64,000 nt of DNA from contig JAJSAH010000009.1 in assembly GCA_024274875.1 (NCBI GenBank), forward strand, positions 8,303 through 72,302, given 5' to 3'. The notes below the pieces were generated by a model. The model ran no database searches. It worked only from the letters and a program-made list of their open reading frames with translations, and was not told the origin of the DNA. Source of the stretch: an archaeon (GTDB taxonomy: Archaea > Micrarchaeota > Micrarchaeia > CAILAH01). The position numbers and the translations under genes are program-made. Within the stretch, counting starts at the first letter, position 1; each line of letters starts with the position of its first letter. Positions 1-64,000 of this stretch are shown piece after piece.

Positions 1-220
1 TTAGGCGGGGCTGATATGCCGGGCGAGGCTGTATGCGTATGACAGGTCCATGCGTTTAACGTTGATCTCCTGCCTTGCGCGGCGGCTCTTGCAGTGAACC
101 GGGTCAGGCCGGAAGGAGCAGCCCTAAACTGTAAGCGCCGTGCCGCAAGTCAACAGGAATGAGTTGGCGCTTGGAGCAACCTGGTTATGCGCATGCCGTC
201 CAACCCGGCAATTCCGCGCG
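1..220 (+). ncRNA. Signal recognition particle RNA (7S SRP RNA), 5' end truncated by the window edge
   Basis: Positions 98-124 read ACCGGGUCAGGCCGGAAGGAGCAGCCC, which is the conserved SRP helix-8 signature (GGUCAGG..GGAA..GCAGCC). Segment 27-46 (GGCUGUAUGCGUAUGACAGG) pairs, with G-U pairs and one bulge, with 180-198 (CCUGGUUAUGCGCAUGCCG) as a long helix 5. The 3' end is approximate. Confidence 0.8.
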
Positions 221-27217: not shown

Positions 27218-27325
27218 GCCGCAGTAGCTCAGCCTGGGAGAGCACACGGCTGAAGAATGCAGTATGTGCTCTGAAACCGTGGTGTCGGTGGTTCAAATAT
27301 TTGGTTGGAAATCCGCCCTGCGGCA
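27218..27325 (+). tRNA. tRNA-Phe (anticodon GAA), apparently with two introns: about 20 nt after position 37, and 14 nt within the T-loop
   Basis: Acceptor stem is GCCGCAG/CUGCGGC with discriminator A. D arm is GCUC-AGCCUGGGA-GAGC. The anticodon stem CACGG/CCGUG encloses 27 nt that begin CUGAAG. The T stem GGUGG/CCGCC encloses UUCAAAU plus 14 extra nt. Removing both inserts leaves a canonical 74-nt tRNA. Confidence 0.75.
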
Positions 27326-27559: not shown

Positions 27560-28171
27560 ATGGTTCAAAAACGAATGAAAAGGAGAATTAAGCCCAAAAA
27601 GGAAGACATTAAAATAACTAATCTCTTGCTCGCCAGGGGCGTTGGATTGGCGGTTGGAAATGTGCGAAACAATACTGTTGGGCAAAAGTATGAGAGATTG
27701 ATTACGCTTGATTACGGATTGGATAAGAGGCACAATGGAAAAAACTGGATAGGAGGGGCAAATGGCGTATGGAAGCATGAGGAGATAGTGTATGTGCAAG
27801 CTATATACAACACGCTAGTCAACCTTGGATACATTAAGGGGAAAACAATAAAGATTGATGGCGTGTACGGCGCAAAAACCAAAGAAGCAATCAAGAAATT
27901 GCAAAAACTGGCAGGTGCAAAAACAGATGGGTATTTTGGTATAGATACTAGGAATAAGCTGGCTGCATGGGTGACTAGGAATAAGAATTCGTTGCAGAAC
28001 AAATATTCAGAACTATTTAAGAAACCAGCTCGCAATAGATCTGTTCCTATGAGAGCTAGCAAAAAGCGGGCTGCGAAGAAAAAGAAAACAGCCAATCAAA
28101 AATCCAAAAAAGAAGAGAAAAAGAATCGCAAATCCAAAGGAGAAGAAAAAATAAGGGATTTGGAAATATAA
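27560..28171 (+). CDS. Protein with a peptidoglycan-binding (PG_binding_1-like) domain and a Lys-rich C-terminal tail
   Basis: VYVQAIYNTLVNLGYIKGKTIKIDGVYGAKTKEAIKKLQKLAGAKTDGYFGIDTRNKLAAW matches the LGY..IDG.[FY]G..T..A[VI]..[FL]Q...G...DG..G..T...L consensus. The ATG follows GGGGAG. Confidence 0.65.
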   Translation: MVQKRMKRRIKPKKEDIKITNLLLARGVGLAVGNVRNNTVGQKYERLITLDYGLDKRHNGKNWIGGANGVWKHEEIVYVQAIYNTLVNLGYIKGKTIKIDGVYGAKTKEAIKKLQKLAGAKTDGYFGIDTRNKLAAWVTRNKNSLQNKYSELFKKPARNRSVPMRASKKRAAKKKKTANQKSKKEEKKNRKSKGEEKIRDLEI

Positions 28172-28212
28172 GCGATGAGTTTATATGCTTATATTCATTC
28201 TAATTTTACCCT

Positions 28213-31200
28213 ATGAAATCATACAAGCTTCGAAAGTTTATCATCACCATTGCTGCCGTGCAGCTTATGCACTCCGCTCCTGCAAAAAGCAGTGCAGAAA
28301 GTATAAAAAGAATAGGCAATAACATATTAGTGGAGGATATCATGGTTGCGCAGGCAATAAAATCCAAGGAAGAGCGAGAGAGGGAAAAAATCCTAAACAG
28401 AATCGCAACGGTTGCAGTCCGCCTTGACCAATTAGGTTATACTGGACTCAAAAAAGATGAAGATTACATGAAAAGTAGGTATCTTGGCAAAACCAAATAT
28501 AAGTGGCTGTTTAGCAATGAAAAACTTCTGCCGGATAAACTGCGCAATCTGCTAAAAACGTTCGATAAGAATAAGAATTGGCTTGGGCTGAAAATGTTGT
28601 TTTTGTATGCTGCGACAAGAGATATGAGCGCGCAGGAGATAAAAAAATATGCAAATAGCATGCAAAAACATGTAAATGAGGCAGAACAGCGCATAAAACA
28701 AAGAAAAAGGGTAAGAGTAGAAGTGCCAAAAAGAAAAACAACTGATAATGATGCGCTCATAAAAAAACTGCTTGATGAAAGGTTTGCTCCTACTGAGAGA
28801 GAAATAAGTGCGCTGAACAAAGTAAGCGCCGAGGAGATTATGAGCGTTGCAGAGGAGGAGCAGAATATAATGCGCAAGCGCATGATGTTTGCGCTGGCAG
28901 ATTATGTAAAAGATGGAAATAAGCTTGGGGAAGTTAATGCTAAGCTTTTCTACCGTGCGGCAATACTGGTCTATAAAGGTGAAAAATGCTACTTATTTGG
29001 TCTCAATAGTGAGTTTGATGCATTGGATACCTACATAAAAACAAACTACGATAAATTAAGCGAATCTGAAAAAAAGCTGTTTGCGGCATACTTATATTAT
29101 AATGTGCGACATTCGTTGGAGGATTTCCAAAAAATATTTCCAAAAAAGAGCAAAACAAATATTGATTATTTCAGAGGAGTTATGGCAAATTTGAAAGATA
29201 TATACGCGCAGTTCAGCCGCATTTCATACTTAGATGATGAAAAAACCATCGAACAGAGATTGCAGTTCATCGAAAAAAGGATAAGGAAGATGTTTGGGAA
29301 AAATGTTTCTGCAATAACTGTGCTTAAAACAAGAATAGATTTTGAGAGCATGAATAACCTGTTTCCAGATGAAATGAAGGCAGATTACAGCATGAAAAGG
29401 CAATCGTTTGAGGATTTGGTCAGGACTGCTTCAATGGAGATTGGAGAGGAGCAATTGGCGGATTATGAAGCGAGCAAGCTGAAGGGCGTGCAGCCTCCTC
29501 AACTCACAAATGAAGAGCAGGCTCTCCTCAACTCATTCCTGTCCAACGCAACATATATGGATGCATACCTGCTCGGAGATTTCTGGAATAAGTGCGCCTT
29601 TAAAGATCCATACACTGCAAGAACCGTGCTGAGAACATTGCTTGCGATCTACAAAACTGATCCTTATTTAGTGCAACATGCGGCTAAATATGTTCTCCCA
29701 ACATTAAGCAGAGTGAGCAACGATGAATCAGAGTTTGTTAGGTTGCTTGCAGGGTTTGGCGCAGAGTTTTCAAGGAGGGCTTCGCCGTCAAGAGACCTCT
29801 CTTCTCTGTTCCAGCGCAGATATTATATCGAGAAGTTTAGGGAGATTAGTAAAAAACTTCCGAAAGTGTTGGGTTTTGATTATAGGGATCTCTCATTTGA
29901 TTTATGGGAAAGGCCTGGCGGTTATGAGCATCCTGATTACTACAATGTAAAAAAATCTAGGGTTATTCCTGAGGAAAGAAAATCTATTCCTGAGTATACA
30001 AGCATGCGCAGATATAATCTCAGTTTATATCCATACAGAGTTCCGCTGCTTGACCCAGGAAGATTGCATCTTAATCAAGATGTTCTAAGCATGATGCATC
30101 CGGAAGCTAAAGAAGTGTATTCATACGCAAACAATCTGTTCAATCCAGAGATGAGAGCATTTAGAGCAGGCGTTCCAAACCCATATAAAATACGCAGGTA
30201 TAATCCGGATAGAATTTACAAAAAGATGATGAGGATTTTTGCAGATTTTCCGGGCGTTGCATATTCGGGCGAGCTCACATCGGGAAATGCTGTTGGAGGA
30301 GCATATGCAAATGAAGAGTTGTGGGAATTGGGGGCGCGCGGCGCTATAGCAACTACCTCTGGAGGCGCCAGCAGTGAAGTCATCGGGGGCAAAATTTCAG
30401 GGAGGGGAGAGGTTCGAGGACGCGCGGATGCCTCGATGATTCCAATCTCAGGACCTGTGCAAGTCCACAAAGCGTCCATGAAAGGCAATTGGAGAGAGGA
30501 GGAATATGTTGAAGGTGCGCTGCAATCTTTTATACAAGTTGCAAAGGAACAGCGAAAAGATATGTTAGTTTATGTATATGGATATGACAGGCTGCCTGAA
30601 GAAAAAGGAAAGTTTAGAGAAAGGTTGTATTATGTTGATAAGGAGGGCAATTATGTGCAGATTGCAGCAGGGCAGGATGATTACAGCAGGGTTTACAATT
30701 ACGCCTTCGGTGAGGCAGATTATAGCCCTATTCTGCTCAGCGCAAAAGCTCAGCACGATTTGCATGATGAGTATGCATTCAACGGAGGCGCGCTCGGATT
30801 TGATGTGAAGGATTATGTATCTATGTTCGGAATAGCAAATCTTCCAAAAGGCATACCAAAAGAAAAGTATGAAAAAGCTGAATTTGGGGTAGGGGCTGGA
30901 GTAAAGGTTTCGAAAACGCCGGATATAATTGTTGCCAATTTCAGAGGGTTCATCCCTAATGAAGAAAGCCGTGCAAAAGGGATATATGTAGGTGAATTAC
31001 AGTGGCTCAGAATACCTAAAGATGAGCGCGCATACGCGCACATTGCGAGAGCAGTAGGGGGCGTTGGCACAGTAGGGGGGGAGTACAGAGTTGAATGGAC
31101 GGGTGAGAGGAAGTATGGGGTAGGAGCGTCTGGTGGTTTGGAAACAAAAAACATTATCCAAAACTTCCCGCAACTTGATGAAGATGCGAGCGAATACGCA

Positions 31201-32337
31201 AGGAGCGTTAAAGAAATTCTTGTGAATGTTTACCATTGGTCTGAGGATGCGGCTGAAAAGCAGGGATGGTTTATTGCAGGCATGTACATCTACTCCAAAC
31301 TCTATAACCTCGTTGATAACGCAGATGATAAGGAGATTGCGAAGCATTATGCGCAGGCAATATTCATGTACTGGTCTGACAAACACCAGATTTTGGTAGG
31401 CGGTGAAAAAATGCCGCACTGGAACAGCGTGCGCAATGAAATTGATGCAGCTGTCAGGAATGCAGAAATGTACCCTGGCCGTGCGGATGAATATTACCAA
31501 CGCGCGTATGACAACATAAAAAACATTATGGAAAAAGATGACCTGTGGAGGTTCAGCATCGGATGGGGTTGGGACGGCAAAGTATATGTGGCAGGCACAT
31601 TCAAAAGCGATGAGTATGCAAACCTCCGCGGCATAATAGCGATAAATGAAGATATGCTTATAGATATGTATGGGCAGGCATACGTATATTTTGGAGAAAG
31701 ATTCATCGATGCTTTTGGAGGAGTAGTGTGGAGAGATATAGGGGAGATTATAAGTTTGAGAGCAGATCTCGGACCAACCTTTTCAATTGATGGAGATTAT
31801 TCAGGCATGTCTGGCAGAGGGCTAGTGAGGTTTGCAAAGGATAATCTTGCATTGATATTGGGCGGCATGGGCGGATACAAAGACCTTAAGACCGCAAAGC
31901 TTGATCAGTGGCAGATAGTGCTCACAGGAAATGTGAAGAACATCGATGAGGGAAAATTAAGCGAACACACATTCTATGTTGGAGTTAATGTCGCCAATAA
32001 GGAAGCTGTGATTGTTGATGAAAGCGAATGGGAGATGTGGAGAGCAAAGGCCGGGTATGAATGGAGCATGATGGAAATAGATGATTCTGGAATACATATA
32101 TTTGCCGATGCATCTGTTGGGAGGATCAATAACATAAGCGAAGGAAGAAATGATTGGATAGCCACAGGCCAGTTTGGGTTTAGGTTGGAGGATTATTTAA
32201 GCATAGCGATGTTCGGAGGGTTCAATCCACCAGTGGGGATTGGAGATGTGAATATGTGGTGGCCTAATTATGTGGGAAGAATCCCGTTCTCAATGGATAG
32301 CTGGTTTATTGGACTGAAAATAAGCGGAACATTTTAA
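28213..32337 (+). CDS. Giant secreted protein of unknown function (1374 aa)
   Basis: The signal peptide is Sec-like: MKSYKLRKFIITIAAVQLMHSAPA. The N-terminal half is K/E-rich and helical. The C-terminal half is Gly- and aromatic-rich with alternating-polarity segments and ends ...WFIGLKISGTF. No internal TM helix or known catalytic motif was recognised. Confidence 0.7.
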   Translation: MKSYKLRKFIITIAAVQLMHSAPAKSSAESIKRIGNNILVEDIMVAQAIKSKEEREREKILNRIATVAVRLDQLGYTGLKKDEDYMKSRYLGKTKYKWLFSNEKLLPDKLRNLLKTFDKNKNWLGLKMLFLYAATRDMSAQEIKKYANSMQKHVNEAEQRIKQRKRVRVEVPKRKTTDNDALIKKLLDERFAPTEREISALNKVSAEEIMSVAEEEQNIMRKRMMFALADYVKDGNKLGEVNAKLFYRAAILVYKGEKCYLFGLNSEFDALDTYIKTNYDKLSESEKKLFAAYLYYNVRHSLEDFQKIFPKKSKTNIDYFRGVMANLKDIYAQFSRISYLDDEKTIEQRLQFIEKRIRKMFGKNVSAITVLKTRIDFESMNNLFPDEMKADYSMKRQSFEDLVRTASMEIGEEQLADYEASKLKGVQPPQLTNEEQALLNSFLSNATYMDAYLLGDFWNKCAFKDPYTARTVLRTLLAIYKTDPYLVQHAAKYVLPTLSRVSNDESEFVRLLAGFGAEFSRRASPSRDLSSLFQRRYYIEKFREISKKLPKVLGFDYRDLSFDLWERPGGYEHPDYYNVKKSRVIPEERKSIPEYTSMRRYNLSLYPYRVPLLDPGRLHLNQDVLSMMHPEAKEVYSYANNLFNPEMRAFRAGVPNPYKIRRYNPDRIYKKMMRIFADFPGVAYSGELTSGNAVGGAYANEELWELGARGAIATTSGGASSEVIGGKISGRGEVRGRADASMIPISGPVQVHKASMKGNWREEEYVEGALQSFIQVAKEQRKDMLVYVYGYDRLPEEKGKFRERLYYVDKEGNYVQIAAGQDDYSRVYNYAFGEADYSPILLSAKAQHDLHDEYAFNGGALGFDVKDYVSMFGIANLPKGIPKEKYEKAEFGVGAGVKVSKTPDIIVANFRGFIPNEESRAKGIYVGELQWLRIPKDERAYAHIARAVGGVGTVGGEYRVEWTGERKYGVGASGGLETKNIIQNFPQLDEDASEYARSVKEILVNVYHWSEDAAEKQGWFIAGMYIYSKLYNLVDNADDKEIAKHYAQAIFMYWSDKHQILVGGEKMPHWNSVRNEIDAAVRNAEMYPGRADEYYQRAYDNIKNIMEKDDLWRFSIGWGWDGKVYVAGTFKSDEYANLRGIIAINEDMLIDMYGQAYVYFGERFIDAFGGVVWRDIGEIISLRADLGPTFSIDGDYSGMSGRGLVRFAKDNLALILGGMGGYKDLKTAKLDQWQIVLTGNVKNIDEGKLSEHTFYVGVNVANKEAVIVDESEWEMWRAKAGYEWSMMEIDDSGIHIFADASVGRINNISEGRNDWIATGQFGFRLEDYLSIAMFGGFNPPVGIGDVNMWWPNYVGRIPFSMDSWFIGLKISGTF

Positions 32338-32346
32338 ATAAAAAAA

Positions 32347-32766
32347 TTATTCGCTCTTCTCAGCGAATTCATTAAGCTGCGTTTCGAGCTCATCTAATTG
32401 CTTGCTTATGCGCTCTAATGTCCTGCGCATGCTTGTGAGCTCATACGTCAGGTTTTGGAAGTATACCCTATCTGCAAACGGCGATATCATAGCACCCTGC
32501 GCTGCCGGAGGTTCCTGTTTTGCTGATGGTTGCGGCGCCTTGGCAGCGGTTTTCTCGACGACTGCTGATTTTTGCTTGCTCATAGCTCTCATCTCCTTCT
32601 TTACTTCTCTCACCCATTTTCTAAGATTAACATATGGCAGGAATTTGTGCTTCCCTGTTTTCTTCGTTATAATCTCCCTTAATTCTGCCAGTTTAGTGAC
32701 GGTTATGCTCTCGCCCTCCCAATCTTTAAGCTTCTTCATGATTATGCTTTTAACTTTGTCATCCAC
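32347..32766 (-). CDS. Hypothetical protein with a Pro/Ala/Gln linker and a C-terminal coiled coil
   Basis: The ORF has clean boundaries. Its C-terminus reads LTSMRRTLERISKQLDELETQLNEF. I recognise no family. Confidence 0.45.
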   Translation of the reverse strand: MDDKVKSIIMKKLKDWEGESITVTKLAELREIITKKTGKHKFLPYVNLRKWVREVKKEMRAMSKQKSAVVEKTAAKAPQPSAKQEPPAAQGAMISPFADRVYFQNLTYELTSMRRTLERISKQLDELETQLNEFAEKSE

Positions 32767-43105: not shown

Positions 43106-44572
43106 TTATCTGCGGCTTTTACGTATGAGTAGGGACCTTACTTTCATCTTCGCATCTATGCTCTGGCACTGATTGAGCAGAGAGCGAAGTATGTTTTCGG
43201 ATATCTTTTTCTTCGGTCCAGTCTTAATTTCATAAGTAGCGCCGTCTTTAACTAAATCAAAGAAGGAGAATTTTCTTCCAGATGTTGCAGAGCTAACTGA
43301 AATCACTTTTGTAGGGTCGACAACGCTGCATACCATATCAAATATGCGGGATTCGGCAGGAAGCTCAATCTCTTTAACTGATTTCCTGCGCACAACCTTA
43401 ACTTTCATTCTGTCTGACCTTATGGCAAATGACATCGATTCAATATCATCAGTGCTGGCGTCTTTCAGAAAATCGCTGAACCTTGAAACAAGAAGCAATT
43501 TATCCTTATTAATTTTCCTGGGTTTGAACAGCGCGTGCGCCCAATCTCCTTTCTCGCATCTCTCAAGCATCTTTCTGGTCTTTATTTGAACCTCAATATA
43601 AATGCCGTTGTACGGAATATCCACATGAATGGATTGGTATCCTGTTTCTCCCCTTGGGTTTTTTATGTAATCGTCCACATCATCATCTGTTAGGCCAAAC
43701 TTCTCCTTGATCATCTCAGCAATGAAATACGCCTCATCAACTGATTCAGTCACAAGCATAAATGCAACGATATCATGAAGCTTCCTTATGTCTTCGGGGC
43801 TCATTTCCCTTGAAACAAGCTTCAATGTTATGCTTCCGGGCGTTTTAATCCTGCTTCTGCAACACGGATCAACCCTTATTCCATGAAGAGAGATGGCTTC
43901 ATTTACTATATCACTGAGCTCCTGGCTGAATGCTCTTTCGTTCTCCATTATTTTATCGTTCAGCGCGCTAAGCTCCTCCAACACCTTTGAATGCAGCTTT
44001 GGATAAAGAACTTTGGATGAATAATCGCGCAGCTTGTTCATTACAGAATTGAGACCAAGCATATCAGCGAACGGCGTGTAAACATAGAGCATTGACTGCG
44101 CAAGATTGTATATCTGTTCATCAGGTCTATGTTTGTTAATGAGAAAATTATTGATCAGCACGCGCTTATCTTCAGGAAGATGCGAAAGATCAACCGTGCG
44201 GAACACTGCGAGAGGAACATTAGTTGATAATATTGAATAATCCTTCCATTGCTCTTTTTTCGACATATCTAAATGCTTCAAATGCATGAATTCCTCAAAC
44301 AACTTTCCAATTTTAGCGCGTATATCATCGGGAAGCATCTTGCTGGACCTGAAATCTTCATGGTATAATGCTAAACGAAGAAGATCGTAAGGGTCAACAT
44401 TAAACATTCCATTATCGTTACTGTCGTTCATTCCAGATGCAAGTTTTAAAAATAAGGATACATTATGCGAAATTATTGTATCAGACACATCTTTCTTTCT
44501 AAGCCATTCGACTGCTTTTTCTTTCATGCGCTTAAGCATCCCGTGCTTTGTCAATGCTTTTTTATATGTCAT
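43106..44572 (-). CDS. RelA/SpoT-homolog-like protein: degenerate HD-like N-terminus, alarmone-synthetase-like nucleotidyltransferase domain and a TGS-like C-terminus
   Basis: Synthetase-like motifs are RIKTPGSITLKL (RxKxxxSxxxK), HDIVAFMLV, and GYQSIHVDI...IYIEVQIKTRKM....GDWAHALFK (GYxSxH...E.QI.T....A..G.AAH..YK). The N-terminus has LLRLALYHEDF where LLHDxxED is usual. The C-terminus resembles TGS, ending DGATYEIKT. Confidence 0.65.
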   Translation of the reverse strand: MTYKKALTKHGMLKRMKEKAVEWLRKKDVSDTIISHNVSLFLKLASGMNDSNDNGMFNVDPYDLLRLALYHEDFRSSKMLPDDIRAKIGKLFEEFMHLKHLDMSKKEQWKDYSILSTNVPLAVFRTVDLSHLPEDKRVLINNFLINKHRPDEQIYNLAQSMLYVYTPFADMLGLNSVMNKLRDYSSKVLYPKLHSKVLEELSALNDKIMENERAFSQELSDIVNEAISLHGIRVDPCCRSRIKTPGSITLKLVSREMSPEDIRKLHDIVAFMLVTESVDEAYFIAEMIKEKFGLTDDDVDDYIKNPRGETGYQSIHVDIPYNGIYIEVQIKTRKMLERCEKGDWAHALFKPRKINKDKLLLVSRFSDFLKDASTDDIESMSFAIRSDRMKVKVVRRKSVKEIELPAESRIFDMVCSVVDPTKVISVSSATSGRKFSFFDLVKDGATYEIKTGPKKKISENILRSLLNQCQSIDAKMKVRSLLIRKSRR

Positions 44573-59264: not shown

Positions 59265-62200
59265 TTAATTGAGCAACCACGCCTTTATTCGCAAATATAT
59301 TATTGCAATCTTGTCGTTGAATGATTCAACATTTCCTTGGTTGAAAACATTCACTGAACTGCCAGATGCTGTGTAGTCAAGAGACTGCGAAGTCACATTA
59401 AGGCTGGTGTTTGCAACCTTTGCATCATTAACATAAACCTCTAAGCTTACATTGTATGGGCCCAACTCAGATGGAACGCCATTCCCGCCAGTGGGTATGA
59501 ATGTTATATAAGCTGAGCCCGCACTTGAAGTGTTTGCTTCGCCAACAGCATAATTGGATACATTGCTGTCTATGTTCTGCGGAAGCGCAAACGGAGGTAT
59601 GCCGTTCTTCTCAATTAAATAAACTTTTGCATTGGATATTGGCGCGCCAGTATTGTGGTCTCTTACCGTGATATTGACGCCATACGGCTTTCCAGAAATC
59701 AATGGATAATCCGCGCCAACCACTGTTCCGTTATCGTATGCAGTAATCTCAAACTTCTCGCCACCTCCCAACAGCAACCATTCCTTAACTCTTAGGTATA
59801 CTTTGGCAACTAAATCGTTGAAGTATTCTATATTGCCTCTGCTTGAAACCTGGGGAGTTGTGCCGTCATCATATGGGAGATCTCTTAATGTAACGGACAT
59901 TGATTTGTTGGCTTTTAACCGCGCGCCGTCATACGCGCGAACGGTTATGTTATAGATCCCTACCTTGCTTTCATCAATCTCAGACGCACCTGTTGGAACA
60001 ATGGTTAATGATACATTGCCAAACGCATCAGCAGTGGCATTTGCATAAACATAATTGCTTACATTTGTGTCTATGTACTGTGGCAGGCTGAACGGCAAGT
60101 ATCCGTTCTCCTCATATATGCGCACATTCGCATCGCCAACTGGGCTTCCGTTAATATACATTACATTAACGGTAACATTGTATGGTTCTCCTGAATTCTG
60201 CAATGTTGTTGTTTCAACACCATTCACGAAAATTGTGAGATCCCAGTCAGGATATAAGTATATGTAAATGTTTACAGGACCGCTGTCACCGCCCGGATTT
60301 ACAGTTGGAATAACCAGCGACTCGTTGTAGCCGGAGTACCTGACAGTTGAGTTGCGCGCTTCAAAATCGTATGGATTGAAGTAAACTACTGATGTATCAT
60401 TGAGCGTTATATTCTCATACACTGCAAAACCTTCGATTTCATCGTAAGGATTATCATAATTACCGCTTGCGTTTGTGTTGATCGTTGATAATGGAGTGAG
60501 CATGAATAAATCGTATGCGCCCGTACCTCCTGTACTGTTTGCAACTTCAACCGTGCTTGGTATGGCTTTCGTTATATCTGTTGAGTTTAATGTGTGCACC
60601 TGCGTAATCCACATGTATGCAACCTTGCCAAAACTATTGTTTTCAACTTCAGAAATGTTCAACACTGCATTGGGAGAGCTTTCAAGCACTATGCCATATT
60701 TGCTGTTGTTGGCTGCAATATTATTATCCAAAAATGTAAAGTTGGAATATACGGATATCACACCCGCAATTGCCGCATTGGTGAAGTTGTTTTCATTAAA
60801 CAAGATGTTTCCAGAGCGAAGCATAATGATGCCATATGTATCGGAACCCGTAAAGTTATTGAACTCATAAACTGCGTTCGTGCAGTTAACAGACATCACT
60901 TTCTTATCTAAAAGAATGTTCTGAGAAATGTTTATGAGCCTGCTCGAATTCAAAATATCTATAACGCTTTCCCCAACGGAATAAATTGTATTGTTGGTTA
61001 TGTTCGCGCCGCTCTCAGTATTCAGCTTCACGCCGTTGGCCGAAACATTGTATATCTCGGAATTCAGCAATTCAAATGAGCTGTTGCGCGCAAATATGCC
61101 TGAACTGTCTATTGAGAATAACTTCAATAAATCGAGAGTGATTGCTGTTGAATTAATCATCTCTATTCCAACGCGCGAAGTATTGTGCACGGATGAGTTA
61201 TACACCACTGAAGCATTCGCTTCAGATAAGAGAATGCCGTTGGCTGAAAAATTGTATATATCGCAACCCTTTATAGTTATATTATACCTCGCGCTCATAG
61301 TCAAACCATACTGCTCTGTTTTTGTTTTGTTGCCCGTAACATTGTAACCTCTGCAATCAAGCGTCACATTATCTGCACCGAACCCGATGCAGTTATAATT
61401 ATTAGTGTAATTGTATATGTCGTTGTTTAAGCATACATATCTATTGGGCGTATCTACAGCAACATCGCATTCGCCGCACGATGAGCAATACACTTGGCAT
61501 ACGCCACTCAGCACCGCATAGCCGCTGAATGATGAAACACCGAATTTTAGCGAGGTTGCAGAAGAGCACTCCTTCGCCAAAGTGCTATACACTGATCCGC
61601 CCGAAAGTATCTCATCCCTCGTCTGCGGGAAGCCAGACAATCTATAAACTGTATATGTGCTTGGGTCGGTGCACGAATCCACTGAAACAGTTATGTTCGC
61701 TGATTTGTTGAACTGAGTTGCGTTTGCATCGCTGTCGTTCAAAGAAACAAAGGTTGAATTCAATATTATGTTTGATTGAGACTGCAACTTTGCATATGTT
61801 GTGTTGGCAAAATCAAATGTTATGCAACCAACATCAGAAGAATTATAGCACAGCGTGAAATTCGTGAAATTATTGTAAGAGCCTGCCGGCCAGGTATCGT
61901 CATAATAGTAGACATAATATGTTGCGTTTCGCACAAACGAACCTGAAAATGTGTTGTTCGTTGAACGGCCATTCCCATCATCAGAAGTGTAGTTGAAGTA
62001 TATGCCATAATCGACATCATTGATGCGCAAATCAGAGAATGTGTTGTTGGAGCTGTTTACCTCTAAATACAATCCAACTGTTGCATTGTATATTGTTAAA
62101 TTGGTGAATGCAGATGAGTTTGCATCAGACAAGTATGCGCCATAGGTTGAGCCGAATATCGTCGCATTAGCAATATGGCTTCTGTATGGAACCTGCATAA

Positions 62201-64000
62201 TCGTGCTCTCAACATACAGGCCATAATTGTCATTATTTGAGAGAGTGATATTATCAGTTGTGATTGCAGACGATAATACATACATGCCGCTGTCAACATT
62301 GTTATGAGCATATGCATCGCTTATGTTCGTGTCAAATGAAAATTCCGTGCGGATGCCCATGTATGTGTTGGATGAATTCACAATGCTTATGTTCGCATGA
62401 TCCGTCCCTAAAACAAAGAATCCGTTGTTTCTGTATGTGTCAGAACCTCTTATCGTGATGTTTGTCAGCTGCGAGTTGTCAGCGTTGCACAGAACCAATT
62501 CAGCATATGTTTGATCTGAGATGGTAACTGTGCTGTTGAATACCTGTACTGGTCTGTTCCCTGAACCTACTAAATTTACTATGGAATTGCTGCAGGTAGG
62601 CGCATTGTCTAATGCAATTACACTAAACTCAACATAATAAAAGTCAACATATTTGTTCTCCCTTGCGTAATTGTCTATAATCTCATTGTCACTGCTGTCC
62701 TCAATGAAGAACCCGTAATCATTGTAATCCATCGTATTGTTGTAAACTGTGTTGTTATGCGATCCAGCATCCAAATCCAAACCTATTGTGTTGTTGTTCA
62801 AAGTGTTGTTTTGTATTAAGTTATACTGGGATGAAGTGTACAAATAAATGCCGCGGTGAGTAAGGTTAACTGCATTAAAAGTAAGATTGTTGTAAGATGA
62901 GGAATACAAATATATGCCGCCAACATCAAGGAATGATGACTGCTGATTCGTGATATTGTTGTATGAAATATCGTTGTAATTTGAGTTTTCAACATCAATT
63001 CCTAACCTAACCGTATCAATTGTATTGTTATGCACTTTGCAGTTAGCAGCACCGTTATAAAGCGTGATTGCGCCAGTGCGCACAGAGCTGTCGGTGAGAT
63101 TATGCATATAATTGTTCGAGATTGTGATGTTATTTCCGCTTTCTGTTACATACACAAATGCTACAGATGCGTTGTAAAATGAATTTCCATCAACAATTGA
63201 ATTGTTTGATTGCGATTCAAAAATAATTGGTATATCAATTCCGGCAAATGTTGAGTTGTATATATCAATTGCGCGGCTGCCTGTCGACAATACGCCTTTC
63301 GTGACAAAAATTCTGGAATCAAGGCGCGGTGAATGCTCAAACGACGACGCAGATATGTTTATTATAGTGATGTTTGATGCGTTGAGCAGCCATACTGCTG
63401 ATATTGTGGAGTCGCTTGATTCATTTGCATCTATGTAAAAGTTTGAGAATGCATTGTTTTCAAGCGTTATATTCCAAAAAGATGAAGGAAATGATAACGG
63501 AGCCTCTATTTGCAATGCTTGCAGTTTCACAAAATCCCCTGAAGGAGATACATTAGTAGCGTTGAAACCAGTAATGGTATTGTTGGATATTAGAACATGC
63601 ATGAACTTTCCTGCGTCTTTAGTAGTGAATGCGGCGATTGATGGCGAGGCGTACACGGTCTTAAAATCTGAAAATGTGTTGTTAATTATGTAAATGTGGG
63701 TGTAATTGTTCTGTGATATAATCGTATCATCCAATCCCAAAGCGATGCCGTAGCCAGGAGCGGACGGGCTTGAATAAAACCTTGAGAATGTTATGTTGCG
63801 CACGGTCAAGTTGTCAGTTGCGTTGTCCTTATACACACCGTATGAATAATTCTGAATGGTTCCGCCTTCAATAGTTATGTTTTGCAGGAATTTCTCAGGA
63901 ACTAAATACATGCAGGTTCCGGAGCCCGAGCCGTTTATCAAACTTCCGTTCAGGTTTATCTGCACATTGCTTGAATTTATGTAGAATGCAAGATCATATG
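59265..64000 (-). CDS. Giant surface protein with right-handed parallel beta-helix repeats (PbH1/NosD-like) and two C-terminal tandem modules of about 150 aa. It is partial, because the reading frame is still open at the window edge.
   Basis: More than 1570 codons are present. Beta-helix rungs recur every 20-25 aa (for example N.T...N.I.....GI.L..S..N.I..N.). N-x-S/T sequons are extremely frequent. The duplicated C-terminal modules read GEPYNVTVN...YFNDLVAKVYLRVKEWLL and GKPYGVNIT...SFNDKIAIIYLRIKAWLL. There is no stop codon between the first in-frame start listed in the ORF track and position 64000. Confidence 0.8.
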   Translation of the reverse strand, partial: YDLAFYINSSNVQINLNGSLINGSGSGTCMYLVPEKFLQNITIEGGTIQNYSYGVYKDNATDNLTVRNITFSRFYSSPSAPGYGIALGLDDTIISQNNYTHIYIINNTFSDFKTVYASPSIAAFTTKDAGKFMHVLISNNTITGFNATNVSPSGDFVKLQALQIEAPLSFPSSFWNITLENNAFSNFYIDANESSDSTISAVWLLNASNITIINISASSFEHSPRLDSRIFVTKGVLSTGSRAIDIYNSTFAGIDIPIIFESQSNNSIVDGNSFYNASVAFVYVTESGNNITISNNYMHNLTDSSVRTGAITLYNGAANCKVHNNTIDTVRLGIDVENSNYNDISYNNITNQQSSFLDVGGIYLYSSSYNNLTFNAVNLTHRGIYLYTSSQYNLIQNNTLNNNTIGLDLDAGSHNNTVYNNTMDYNDYGFFIEDSSDNEIIDNYARENKYVDFYYVEFSVIALDNAPTCSNSIVNLVGSGNRPVQVFNSTVTISDQTYAELVLCNADNSQLTNITIRGSDTYRNNGFFVLGTDHANISIVNSSNTYMGIRTEFSFDTNISDAYAHNNVDSGMYVLSSAITTDNITLSNNDNYGLYVESTIMQVPYRSHIANATIFGSTYGAYLSDANSSAFTNLTIYNATVGLYLEVNSSNNTFSDLRINDVDYGIYFNYTSDDGNGRSTNNTFSGSFVRNATYYVYYYDDTWPAGSYNNFTNFTLCYNSSDVGCITFDFANTTYAKLQSQSNIILNSTFVSLNDSDANATQFNKSANITVSVDSCTDPSTYTVYRLSGFPQTRDEILSGGSVYSTLAKECSSATSLKFGVSSFSGYAVLSGVCQVYCSSCGECDVAVDTPNRYVCLNNDIYNYTNNYNCIGFGADNVTLDCRGYNVTGNKTKTEQYGLTMSARYNITIKGCDIYNFSANGILLSEANASVVYNSSVHNTSRVGIEMINSTAITLDLLKLFSIDSSGIFARNSSFELLNSEIYNVSANGVKLNTESGANITNNTIYSVGESVIDILNSSRLINISQNILLDKKVMSVNCTNAVYEFNNFTGSDTYGIIMLRSGNILFNENNFTNAAIAGVISVYSNFTFLDNNIAANNSKYGIVLESSPNAVLNISEVENNSFGKVAYMWITQVHTLNSTDITKAIPSTVEVANSTGGTGAYDLFMLTPLSTINTNASGNYDNPYDEIEGFAVYENITLNDTSVVYFNPYDFEARNSTVRYSGYNESLVIPTVNPGGDSGPVNIYIYLYPDWDLTIFVNGVETTTLQNSGEPYNVTVNVMYINGSPVGDANVRIYEENGYLPFSLPQYIDTNVSNYVYANATADAFGNVSLTIVPTGASEIDESKVGIYNITVRAYDGARLKANKSMSVTLRDLPYDDGTTPQVSSRGNIEYFNDLVAKVYLRVKEWLLLGGGEKFEITAYDNGTVVGADYPLISGKPYGVNITVRDHNTGAPISNAKVYLIEKNGIPPFALPQNIDSNVSNYAVGEANTSSAGSAYITFIPTGGNGVPSELGPYNVSLEVYVNDAKVANTSLNVTSQSLDYTASGSSVNVFNQGNVESFNDKIAIIYLRIKAWLLN

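Follow-up and report, generated by a model that had tools for sequence, protein, structure and literature searches.

Based on structure prediction, exhaustive homology searches and gene-context comparisons, we propose that Micrarchaeota export giant proteins whose C-terminal half is built like the barrels of outer-membrane proteins (OMPs). The protein that led to this proposal is encoded in a 64,000-nt stretch of a Micrarchaeota contig (JAJSAH010000009.1, positions 8,303-72,302 of the forward strand; assembly GCA_024274875.1), hereafter the window. It is the product of the second of two open reading frames (ORFs), gene 1 (27560-28171, 203 aa) and the giant (28213-32337, 1374 aa), which are arranged on one strand with a 41-nt spacer exactly as an earlier sequence-only reading of this DNA had described. 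Both ORFs are real and native to the genome of this tiny, symbiotic Micrarchaeota (DPANN) archaeon. The giant belongs to an undescribed family of very large proteins (1300-3500 aa), and on balance we favour the view that it is a native envelope protein, restricted to its lineage, which is exported and bears a giant barrel of OMP-like build. In models of moderate confidence the predicted fold class is OMP-like but unprecedented in this domain of life, and it is set in a new architecture.

What do the models reveal about the C-terminal half? Two AlphaFold2 (AF2) models were built from family alignments. The first, spanning residues 740-1374 (38 sequences; predicted local distance difference test (pLDDT) 74.9, predicted TM-score (pTM) 0.53), contains 31 strands with a mean length of 11.7 residues arranged in an up-down meander. 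The second, spanning residues 400-1374 (45 sequences; pLDDT 74.1, pTM 0.70), displays an 8-helix bundle, a poorly ordered linker and, from residue 688 on, 36-37 strands that are interrupted by helical insertions at ~766-780 and 1071-1106. Foldseek searches against the PDB at E<=1e-3 retrieved 12 matches with the 740-1374 model and 24 with the 400-1374 model, and all of them are outer-membrane beta-barrels: LptD (E 1.4e-7), Deinococcus SlpA (E 2.8e-5), MtrB, TonB-dependent transporters (BtuB/CirA) and chaperone-usher pores (FimD/PapC). Weaker matches were obtained to SprA (E 2.4e-3) and to the ApoB100 beta-belt (E ~2e-3). The amphipathicity of the predicted strands is 2.05, compared with 1.43±0.19 for shuffles. 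The sequence-only reading had called this half porin-like on account of a series of strand-like segments. Every one of these segments falls inside a predicted strand, and the description gains qualified support from the ~31-37 long antiparallel strands and from the fact that the significant structural matches are outer-membrane beta-barrels only. The C-terminal ~690 residues are thus predicted to form ~36 long antiparallel strands with an OMP-like giant barrel architecture.

The very end of the protein points in the same direction. The terminal WFIGLKISGTF, to which the earlier reading had drawn attention as a barrel signature, is present and lies within a modelled strand. An aromatic end is conserved in the family, F, W or Y being the last residue in 30 of the 40 representatives with an intact end against an aromatic background of 9.7%. 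Preceding positions -3, -5, -7 and -9 are hydrophobic, and Trp is found at -11/-10. This ending resembles the bacterial and mitochondrial beta-signal at -1 and -3, but has no fixed Gly.

How would such a protein leave the cytoplasm? The giant starts with MKSYKLRK-FIITIAAVQLM-HSAPA, in which a basic n-region leads into 11 hydrophobic core residues and then into the cleavage motif A-P-A, placed directly before K25. Signal peptides were called by a heuristic n/h/c analysis backed by conservation: a basic n-region and a hydrophobic core are found in 26/26 family members with complete N-termini, and small-residue cleavage motifs (A-N-A, A-L-A, V-S-A, V-L-A) follow the core across the family. Equivalent signal-like N-termini are carried by the giant homolog on an independent contig, L002, by P0052, P0007, P0011 and P0018, and by an in-frame extension of P0006, so that the Sec-type signal peptide originally suggested for the second gene holds up. 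Located 10-25 residues past the core is a further motif, NINN.G.N.AMAQP in a large clade and RIGNNILVEDIMVAQA in the window protein (residues ~33-48, 28309-28356), for which a role in processing or sorting is possible. A conserved 'MAEP' or 'MAQP' forms the annotated start of many family entries; these starts look mis-called, the true one with its signal peptide apparently lying upstream (loci L006 4616-4741 and L008 upstream of 5001). In the two entries that were checked, the in-frame extension of P0006 supplies MPFRRFLLATVISGSFCLPCTVSA ahead of EV, and the longer form of P0013 supplies MPSYRFRRIAVAIATALIFNSVQPPVLA ahead of EG. A longer form of P0052 was considered as a possible fusion to a peptidoglycan (PG)-binding domain, an idea that was rejected as the extension is a signal peptide.

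Beyond the signal peptide the protein is split by charge into a basic N-terminal half (pI 9.6) and an acidic barrel half (pI 5.0). The former had been described as K/E-rich and helical, in agreement with its composition and with the model, in which the bundle at 400-565 has pLDDT values mostly of 67-92. Residues 25-399, which are conserved only in close relatives, are probably alpha-helical too, judging from a helix-period hydrophobicity z of ~2.7. The linker is modelled with pLDDT values of 41-87, dropping below 50 at model residues 211-227; nonetheless its sequence is conserved in the family. The giant harbours 4 N-x-S/T sequons in 1350 residues; scans of Pfam, NCBIfam and PHROGs assigned it to no family, and PDB searches by sequence or profile were empty. 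Neither internal repeats in the giant nor paralogs within the window were found.

Table 1. Features of the gene pair and of the tRNA gene upstream of it (positions within the window).
Feature	Position	Strand	Description
tRNA-Phe (GAA)	27218-27325	+	Two insertions: 20 nt after anticodon-loop position 37/38 (~27257-27276) and ~14 nt in the T-loop (~27299-27312)
Gene 1	27560-28171	+	ORF, 203 aa; very basic (pI 10.4) stand-alone PG_binding_1-domain protein
PG_binding_1 (PF01471) domain	27794-27961	+	Gene 1 residues 79-134; Pfam match
Lys/Arg-rich C-terminal tail	28019-28168	+	Gene 1 residues 154-203; read from sequence
Spacer	28172-28212	+	41 nt; A/T-rich TATA-like elements TTTATAT at -33 to -27 and CTTATATT at -25 to -18 relative to the ATG of the giant
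Giant	28213-32337	+	ORF, 1374 aa; exported protein, mature form ~155 kDa; identical to P0001 of an NCBI record (72.8-kb contig)
Sec-type signal peptide (predicted)	28213-28284	+	Residues 1-24; cleavage A22-P-A24 before K25; heuristic n/h/c analysis
Basic K/E-rich N-terminal region	28285-29409	+	Residues 25-399; pI 9.6; contains RIGNNILVEDIMVAQA; composition
Family-conserved helical bundle	29410-29907	+	Residues 400-565; 8 helices, including the DPYL motif region; AF2 model md60033b2c9a3, helices H2-165
Pro/Tyr-rich, mostly irregular linker	29908-30273	+	Residues 566-687; few secondary-structure elements; low-confidence AF2
Acidic (pI 5.0) beta-rich region	30274-32334	+	Residues 688-1374; ~36-37 long antiparallel strands predicted; AF2
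C-terminal amphipathic strand ending in Phe	32302-32334	+	SWFIGLKISGTF; beta-signal-like

The giant had initially been regarded as an orphan, a view that does not survive deeper searching. Exhaustive HMMER comparison with 1.84 billion protein representatives brought up 46 that are related to the giant; 21 score E<=1e-30, and the majority measure 1300-3500 aa. No bacterial homolog was present among the 1.84 billion representatives. Word-indexed searches with the giant alone and with an 8-sequence profile had retrieved the query itself only, probably because the K/E-rich, low-complexity N-terminus swamped the candidate list. All four named cluster members are labelled 'Candidatus Micrarchaeota archaeon', and a motif scan of 185,579 GTDB species genomes with a 4-sequence core alignment confirmed 4 loci, all in Micrarchaeota and including Ca. 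Bilamarchaeum. A two-sequence alignment of the N-terminal part gave no loci among the GTDB representatives, which indicates that the genome of the window and its nearest relatives are not among them. The family is found only in Micrarchaeota, to which every named or placeable member belongs. Conservation is concentrated at ~430-740, ~760-1160 and in the C-terminal ~200 residues, the beta-rich region being the best-conserved part, and the larger members are extended by long insertions and, at the N-terminus, by arrays of repeats. For P0006 and P0008, two of the relatives, no Pfam, NCBIfam or PHROG family match was obtained.

What might a protein of this design do? We envisage that, following Sec export and cleavage between A24 and K25, the acidic C-terminal 690 residues would close into a very wide barrel. 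By our own estimate from simple barrel geometry, a ~36-strand barrel would measure ~7 nm across, similar to the largest bacterial barrels. Its site would be a layer of lipid or lipid-like material external to the cytoplasmic membrane, where it would serve as a large conduit or anchor, with the basic helical N-terminal part lying beneath it. That layer may be the outer envelope layer that was at one time taken for a second membrane in cells of the archaeal Richmond Mine acidophilic nanoorganisms (ARMAN) or, alternatively, the membrane of a host at a contact site. A bolder version, which we hold to be possible but doubtful, is that the giants are genuine transmembrane beta-barrels, the first in Archaea, that either mark a real lipid outer layer in some Micrarchaeota or insert a ~7-nm barrel into the host membrane as a conduit for cytoplasmic exchange. 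Beta-barrel OMPs are regarded as a defining trait of diderm bacteria and of the organelles derived from them, and archaea, including the few reported to have a double membrane, are not known to possess any. A search of a full-text library yielded no paper coupling Micrarchaeota with beta-barrels and no description of OMP-like barrels in DPANN archaea. Should the bolder version be true, archaea would need a pathway that recognizes a C-terminal aromatic signal and folds giant beta-barrels without a known Omp85 homolog. A phylum-wide family of exported giants with an OMP-like barrel and a beta-signal-like terminus would in any case reopen the nature of the outer envelope layer of ARMAN and Micrarchaeota cells, provide a concrete candidate for the unidentified envelope complexes at DPANN-host contacts and raise the question of how barrels are assembled without the barrel-assembly machinery (BAM). 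The ~50 sequences supplied here make these ideas directly testable by proteomics, reconstitution and cryo-electron tomography.

A number of observations weigh against an OMP-like barrel in a lipid layer. We know of no Omp85/BAM insertase in archaea, and no insertase of this type was seen in the 64-kb window. No Pfam OMP family matches the giant, the multiple sequence alignments behind the models are shallow (38-45 sequences; pLDDT ~75), and confidence falls below 60 in several loops and in the final strand. The TM-scores of the Foldseek matches never exceed 0.31, so that the likeness is one of architecture, not of family. The face that would contact lipid has flaws, with charges on 19 of its 181 residues and a mean Kyte-Doolittle value of 1.32, three long strands (1228-1288) are not amphipathic, and the AF2-independent period-2 hydrophobicity of the C-terminal half is only ~1.5 standard deviations over shuffles. 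A periplasm-like PG-tether role for gene 1 is doubtful as well, since that protein has no convincing export signal. In favour of the barrel, two membranes were earlier proposed for Micrarchaeota, early ARMAN cryo-electron microscopy having read the outer layer as a second membrane, and the literature is divided over this point (10.1101/2021.04.28.441871; PMC8871954); against it, the one cultivated Micrarchaeon examined has an S-layer and not an outer membrane (10.1101/2021.04.28.441871). The main alternative draws on many of the same facts. It posits that the C-terminal half is a beta-rich, barrel- or sheet-like scaffold that does not reside in lipid, but acts as a soluble or S-layer-associated structural protein of the surface or pseudo-periplasm, for example in a contact or docking complex, and that the aromatic C-terminus is a structural feature rather than a membrane-insertion signal. 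The flawed hydrophobic face with its non-amphipathic strands, the modest periodicity, the low TM-scores and the want of an archaeal insertase known to us would all be accommodated by such a scaffold. So would an S-layer over a single membrane, as in the cultivated Micrarchaeon (10.1101/2021.04.28.441871), and a proteinaceous structure seen by cryo-tomography, the unidentified ~21-nm barrel-shaped complex that lies under the S-layer of cultivated ARM-1 where host nanotubes dock (PMC11329633), which can equally be cited in favour of the OMP-like barrel; a link between that complex and the giant family is speculation. A scaffold is harder to reconcile with significant Foldseek neighbours that are all membrane-embedded barrels, with long strands (mean 11.7 residues) in a meander typical of transmembrane barrels and with a beta-signal-like terminus conserved across the family. 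The absence of TIGR01564/TIGR01567 matches and the presence of only 4 sequons in 1350 aa argue against an S-layer protein of the Ca. Micrarchaeum harzensis type, an identity that we rejected on these grounds, and they count against the scaffold too. We rank the scaffold as rather unlikely. Improbable in our estimation is a third possibility, namely that the amphipathic sheet is a device for lipid binding or transfer, by analogy with the LptD lumen or the apolipoprotein B beta-belt, through which a lipid-auxotrophic symbiont takes lipids from its host. It is attractive in that DPANN archaea depend on their hosts for lipids (10.1101/2023.12.06.570485), LptD is the top structural match of the longer model (E 1.4e-7) and the ApoB100 beta-belt is among the weaker ones (E ~2e-3). 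The TM-scores are low, however (0.12-0.19 for LptD, <=0.16 for ApoB), no OstA/LptD signal was detected with Pfam, the upstream domain is helical in place of an LptA-like jellyroll, and the neighbourhood contains no genes for lipid metabolism or transport.

Could the pair instead be bacterial? The sequence-only reading had listed a horizontally acquired envelope module among its options and had called for an assembly chimera to be excluded. A PG-binding protein and an outer-membrane protein that arrived together by recent horizontal transfer, or on a misassembled bacterial fragment, would explain why the closest PG_binding_1 profile matches are bacterial and phage peptidoglycan hydrolases and why the OMP-like fold is otherwise bacterial or organellar. 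This explanation founders for the giant on the restriction of every named or placeable relative to Micrarchaeota and on the want of any bacterial sequence match among the 1.84 billion representatives. The giant is native in composition: its GC content is 0.425 compared with 0.421 for the window, and its synonymous codon usage correlates with that of housekeeping genes at r=0.946, against 0.922 in a control in which housekeeping genes were compared with each other. On the same contig the pair is flanked by archaeal housekeeping genes encoding aIF2-gamma, MCM with an archaeal winged helix, a presenilin-type signal-peptide peptidase (SPP), GlnA and Alba, MCM and Alba having been cited earlier as archaeal neighbours. 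Further genes of archaeal type in the window encode a GlmU-like enzyme, phosphoglucomutases, CDC48 and an ATP-dependent DNA ligase. Window MCM and aIF2-gamma are 72% and 74% identical, respectively, to those of a 'Candidatus Micrarchaeia archaeon' metagenome-assembled genome (MAG), GCA_049970015.1, which has the aIF2-gamma/MCM/SPP order in common with the window and also carries a 58%-identical ortholog of gene 1. The adjacency of the pair recurs in the independent assembly L002, and archaeal markers (RtcB, Trm56, MCM, SPP, PTH2) neighbour family genes in another seven independent contexts. Chimeric assembly and recent bacterial import are left unsupported by the native codon usage and GC content and by the archaeal genes on both sides, and a chimera is excluded by the composition together with the same adjacency on independent contigs. 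For the giant, import or chimerism is effectively refuted, and we assign it a very low probability. The other two options of the sequence-only reading, a surface system aimed at a host or partner and an envelope structure not recognized so far, are both possible.

The favoured reading, that of an exported envelope protein with an OMP-like giant barrel, invites comparison with known systems. The best or near-best structural neighbours are Deinococcus radiodurans SlpA and the OmpM-type outer-membrane tethers, which combine S-layer homology (SLH), coiled-coil and 30-strand barrel domains (PDB 8ae1, 7zgx); SlpA is matched by the 740-1374 model with E 2.8e-5 and TMq 0.31, and by the 400-1374 model with TM 0.26. 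Common elements are a signal peptide, an elongated helical N-terminal part, a very large C-terminal barrel (predicted in the giant) and an associated wall-binding module, here borne by the neighbouring gene. The giant differs in having no SLH domain or sequence similarity and ~36 predicted strands instead of 30, and the wall-binding domain is a PG_binding_1 domain on a separate protein without a clear export signal, in an archaeal host without murein. LptD, the 26-strand lipopolysaccharide (LPS) translocon (PDB 4q35, 9kn3), is the top Foldseek match of the 975-residue model (E 1.4e-7) and, as is predicted for the giant, forms a large barrel from one chain that has an additional domain at its N-terminus. 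In the giant, this domain is helical rather than a beta-jellyroll, TM-scores are 0.12-0.19, there is no OstA/LptD Pfam signal and no LptE-like partner, and archaea have no LPS. The translocon SprA of the type 9 secretion system (T9SS; PDB 8gl6), with 36 strands the largest single-chain barrel known to us, is comparable in giant size and in strand number (~36 predicted here). The TMq is 0.10, no sequence similarity is present, and SprA belongs to Bacteroidota and acts with T9SS partners that are absent here. In the same phylum as the giant, the known major envelope protein is SLP_Mh, an S-layer protein (~101 kDa, TIGR01564/TIGR01567; 10.1101/2021.04.28.441871), which also has an N-terminal signal or anchor; the giant, in contrast, matches no S-layer model (0 families in the NCBIfam scan), has a different predicted fold and contains few sequons. 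The nearest published theme is that of murein-degrading 'vampiristic' Woesearchaeota with tlyC-type toxins (PMC9723730), which are unrelated to the giant family.

What is the role of gene 1? The PG_binding_1-type repeat recognized earlier in its product is confirmed by a Pfam match to PF01471 (E 1.8e-10; 41.2 bits vs a gathering score of 23) that spans positions 5-57 of the 57-position profile, and NCBIfam and PHROG matches to the same segment are to SleB, peptidoglycan hydrolases and endolysins. In the PDB, the sequence that comes nearest is 4lpq_A, from the PG-binding domain of an L,D-transpeptidase (E 5e-3). Like the domains of peptidoglycan hydrolases, L,D-transpeptidases (PDB 4lpq) and SleB, that of gene 1 carries the typical motifs DG.YG..T..A...Q and DG..G. 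Unlike these proteins, the product has no catalytic domain and no clear signal peptide, is very basic, has a Lys-rich tail and is encoded in an archaeon without murein. The poly-Lys tail reported after the repeat is indeed there (residues 154-203), and a basic tail is also present in the ortholog P0004. Both P0004 and P0005, the latter from a Ca. Micrarchaeia MAG, are 58% identical to gene 1. The exact 198-aa form of gene 1 is P0003, for which NCBI places the start at Met6 (27575). The ATG at 27560 is closely preceded by a GGAG-like element, and the later NCBI start looks mis-called. A convincing signal peptide was not found in gene 1, whose sole hydrophobic stretch (residues 19-35) is broken by Arg; the equivalent stretch is broken by Lys-Ala-Arg in P0004 and absent from P0005. 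Sec export of gene 1 is probably not to be expected from these sequences. The earlier picture of a secreted two-gene module is thereby reduced to its second half: an export signal is predicted on the giant, and no convincing one was found on its partner. ExeA/GspA-type PG_binding_1 proteins help a large outer-membrane pore, the secretin, to assemble, and gene 1 is reminiscent of them as a PF01471-domain protein genetically coupled to a very large putative envelope pore protein. ExeA, however, is a membrane ATPase with a periplasmic PG-binding domain, and gene 1 has neither a transmembrane segment nor an ATPase, so that the resemblance is a lead only. Gene 1 may be an accessory partner in the closest subclade only, a glycan tether or an assembly factor being candidate roles by this loose analogy.

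The pairing itself is conserved over a short evolutionary range. On L002, an independent 2-kb contig, a giant homolog lies 39 nt behind an ortholog of gene 1 (58% identity), and the 307 visible residues of this homolog are 38% identical to residues 1-282 of the giant (E 3e-48). P0005 runs off the end of its contig. In L009, a PG_binding-like half-repeat (hhalign probability 61%, E 8e-5) opens the truncated gene directly upstream of the family member P0018, and a basic, proline-rich region comes further on. No PG-binding gene is found beside family members in L003-L008, L018 and L019, where other unannotated co-directional genes precede. The ~200-aa upstream genes of L008 (217 aa) and L018 (220 aa) were considered as diverged homologs of gene 1 and rejected for want of BLAST or Pfam support. 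A metagenome scan with the gene 1 alignment returned generic PG_binding_1 domains only, with no giant nearby. The suggested co-occurrence in relatives therefore stands for the window and L002, where it is clear, and weakly for L009, and fails for more distant members, so that the PG-binding/giant pairing is a trait of the closest subclade and not of the family. Separate A/T-rich TATA-like boxes, 20-40 nt before the start, belong to both genes of the pair in the window and in L002, and A/T-rich boxes precede the giant homologs of L002 and L009 by 20-35 nt. The TATA-like elements of the spacer may represent a putative promoter, and separate transcription of gene 1 and the giant is possible.

Neighbourhoods of family members display recurrent features. 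Family genes usually end co-directional clusters of large genes without a Pfam match (e.g. 2381, 734 and 560 aa), located at 2406-4589 in L006, 133-7950 in L018, 498-4440 in L019 and 1-3516 in L008. The N-terminal ~300 residues of the giants P0021 and P0024 recur in a 727-aa gene of L006. The clusters and the shared N-terminus suggest that the set of co-exported proteins is wider. A few kb downstream of family members, L003 (13885-16422) and L007 (12420-14413) carry ankyrin-repeat genes in tandem arrays, and a single ankyrin-repeat gene is near a family member in L018 (19751-20137); all three loci are on archaeal contigs. The array in L003 is followed by a gene for an 876-aa product with Sigma70_r2/r4 matches.

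Several other elements of the window deserve mention. The tRNA-Phe gene noted earlier upstream of the pair is present, interrupted by two short insertions (Table 1). It was missed intact by ARAGORN, including its intron mode, and by Rfam at the gathering threshold; once both insertions were cut out, ARAGORN reported tRNA-Phe gaa. A prophage or defence context for the pair was rejected as unsupported, the sole PHROG hit of the giant being a marginal match to a holin over 40 residues (E 1.7e-3). Converging on the stop codon of the giant is a gene for a 139-aa coiled-coil protein (32347-32766, minus strand) with a sub-threshold match to a Mu Gam/Sipho_Gp157-like TOTE domain (E 2e-4; 21.5 bits vs 27). 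At 43106-44572 (minus strand) a 488-aa protein matches the RelA/SpoT family model TIGR00691 with E 3e-34, far under the model cut-off; such an alarmone-synthetase-like gene is unusual for an archaeon. A fragment of signal recognition particle (SRP) RNA at 1-216 (plus strand), cut by the start of the window, is matched by the Rfam model Bacteria_large_SRP (67.6 bits vs a gathering score of 60) even though the contig is archaeal; an overlapping lower-scoring match from the same Rfam clan was suppressed. Finally, a second giant gene at 59265-63965 (minus strand) encodes a 1566-aa protein in which right-handed beta-helix and NosD-like domains are repeated (Pfam Beta_helix E 9e-41) and which is probably another surface protein of this small genome.

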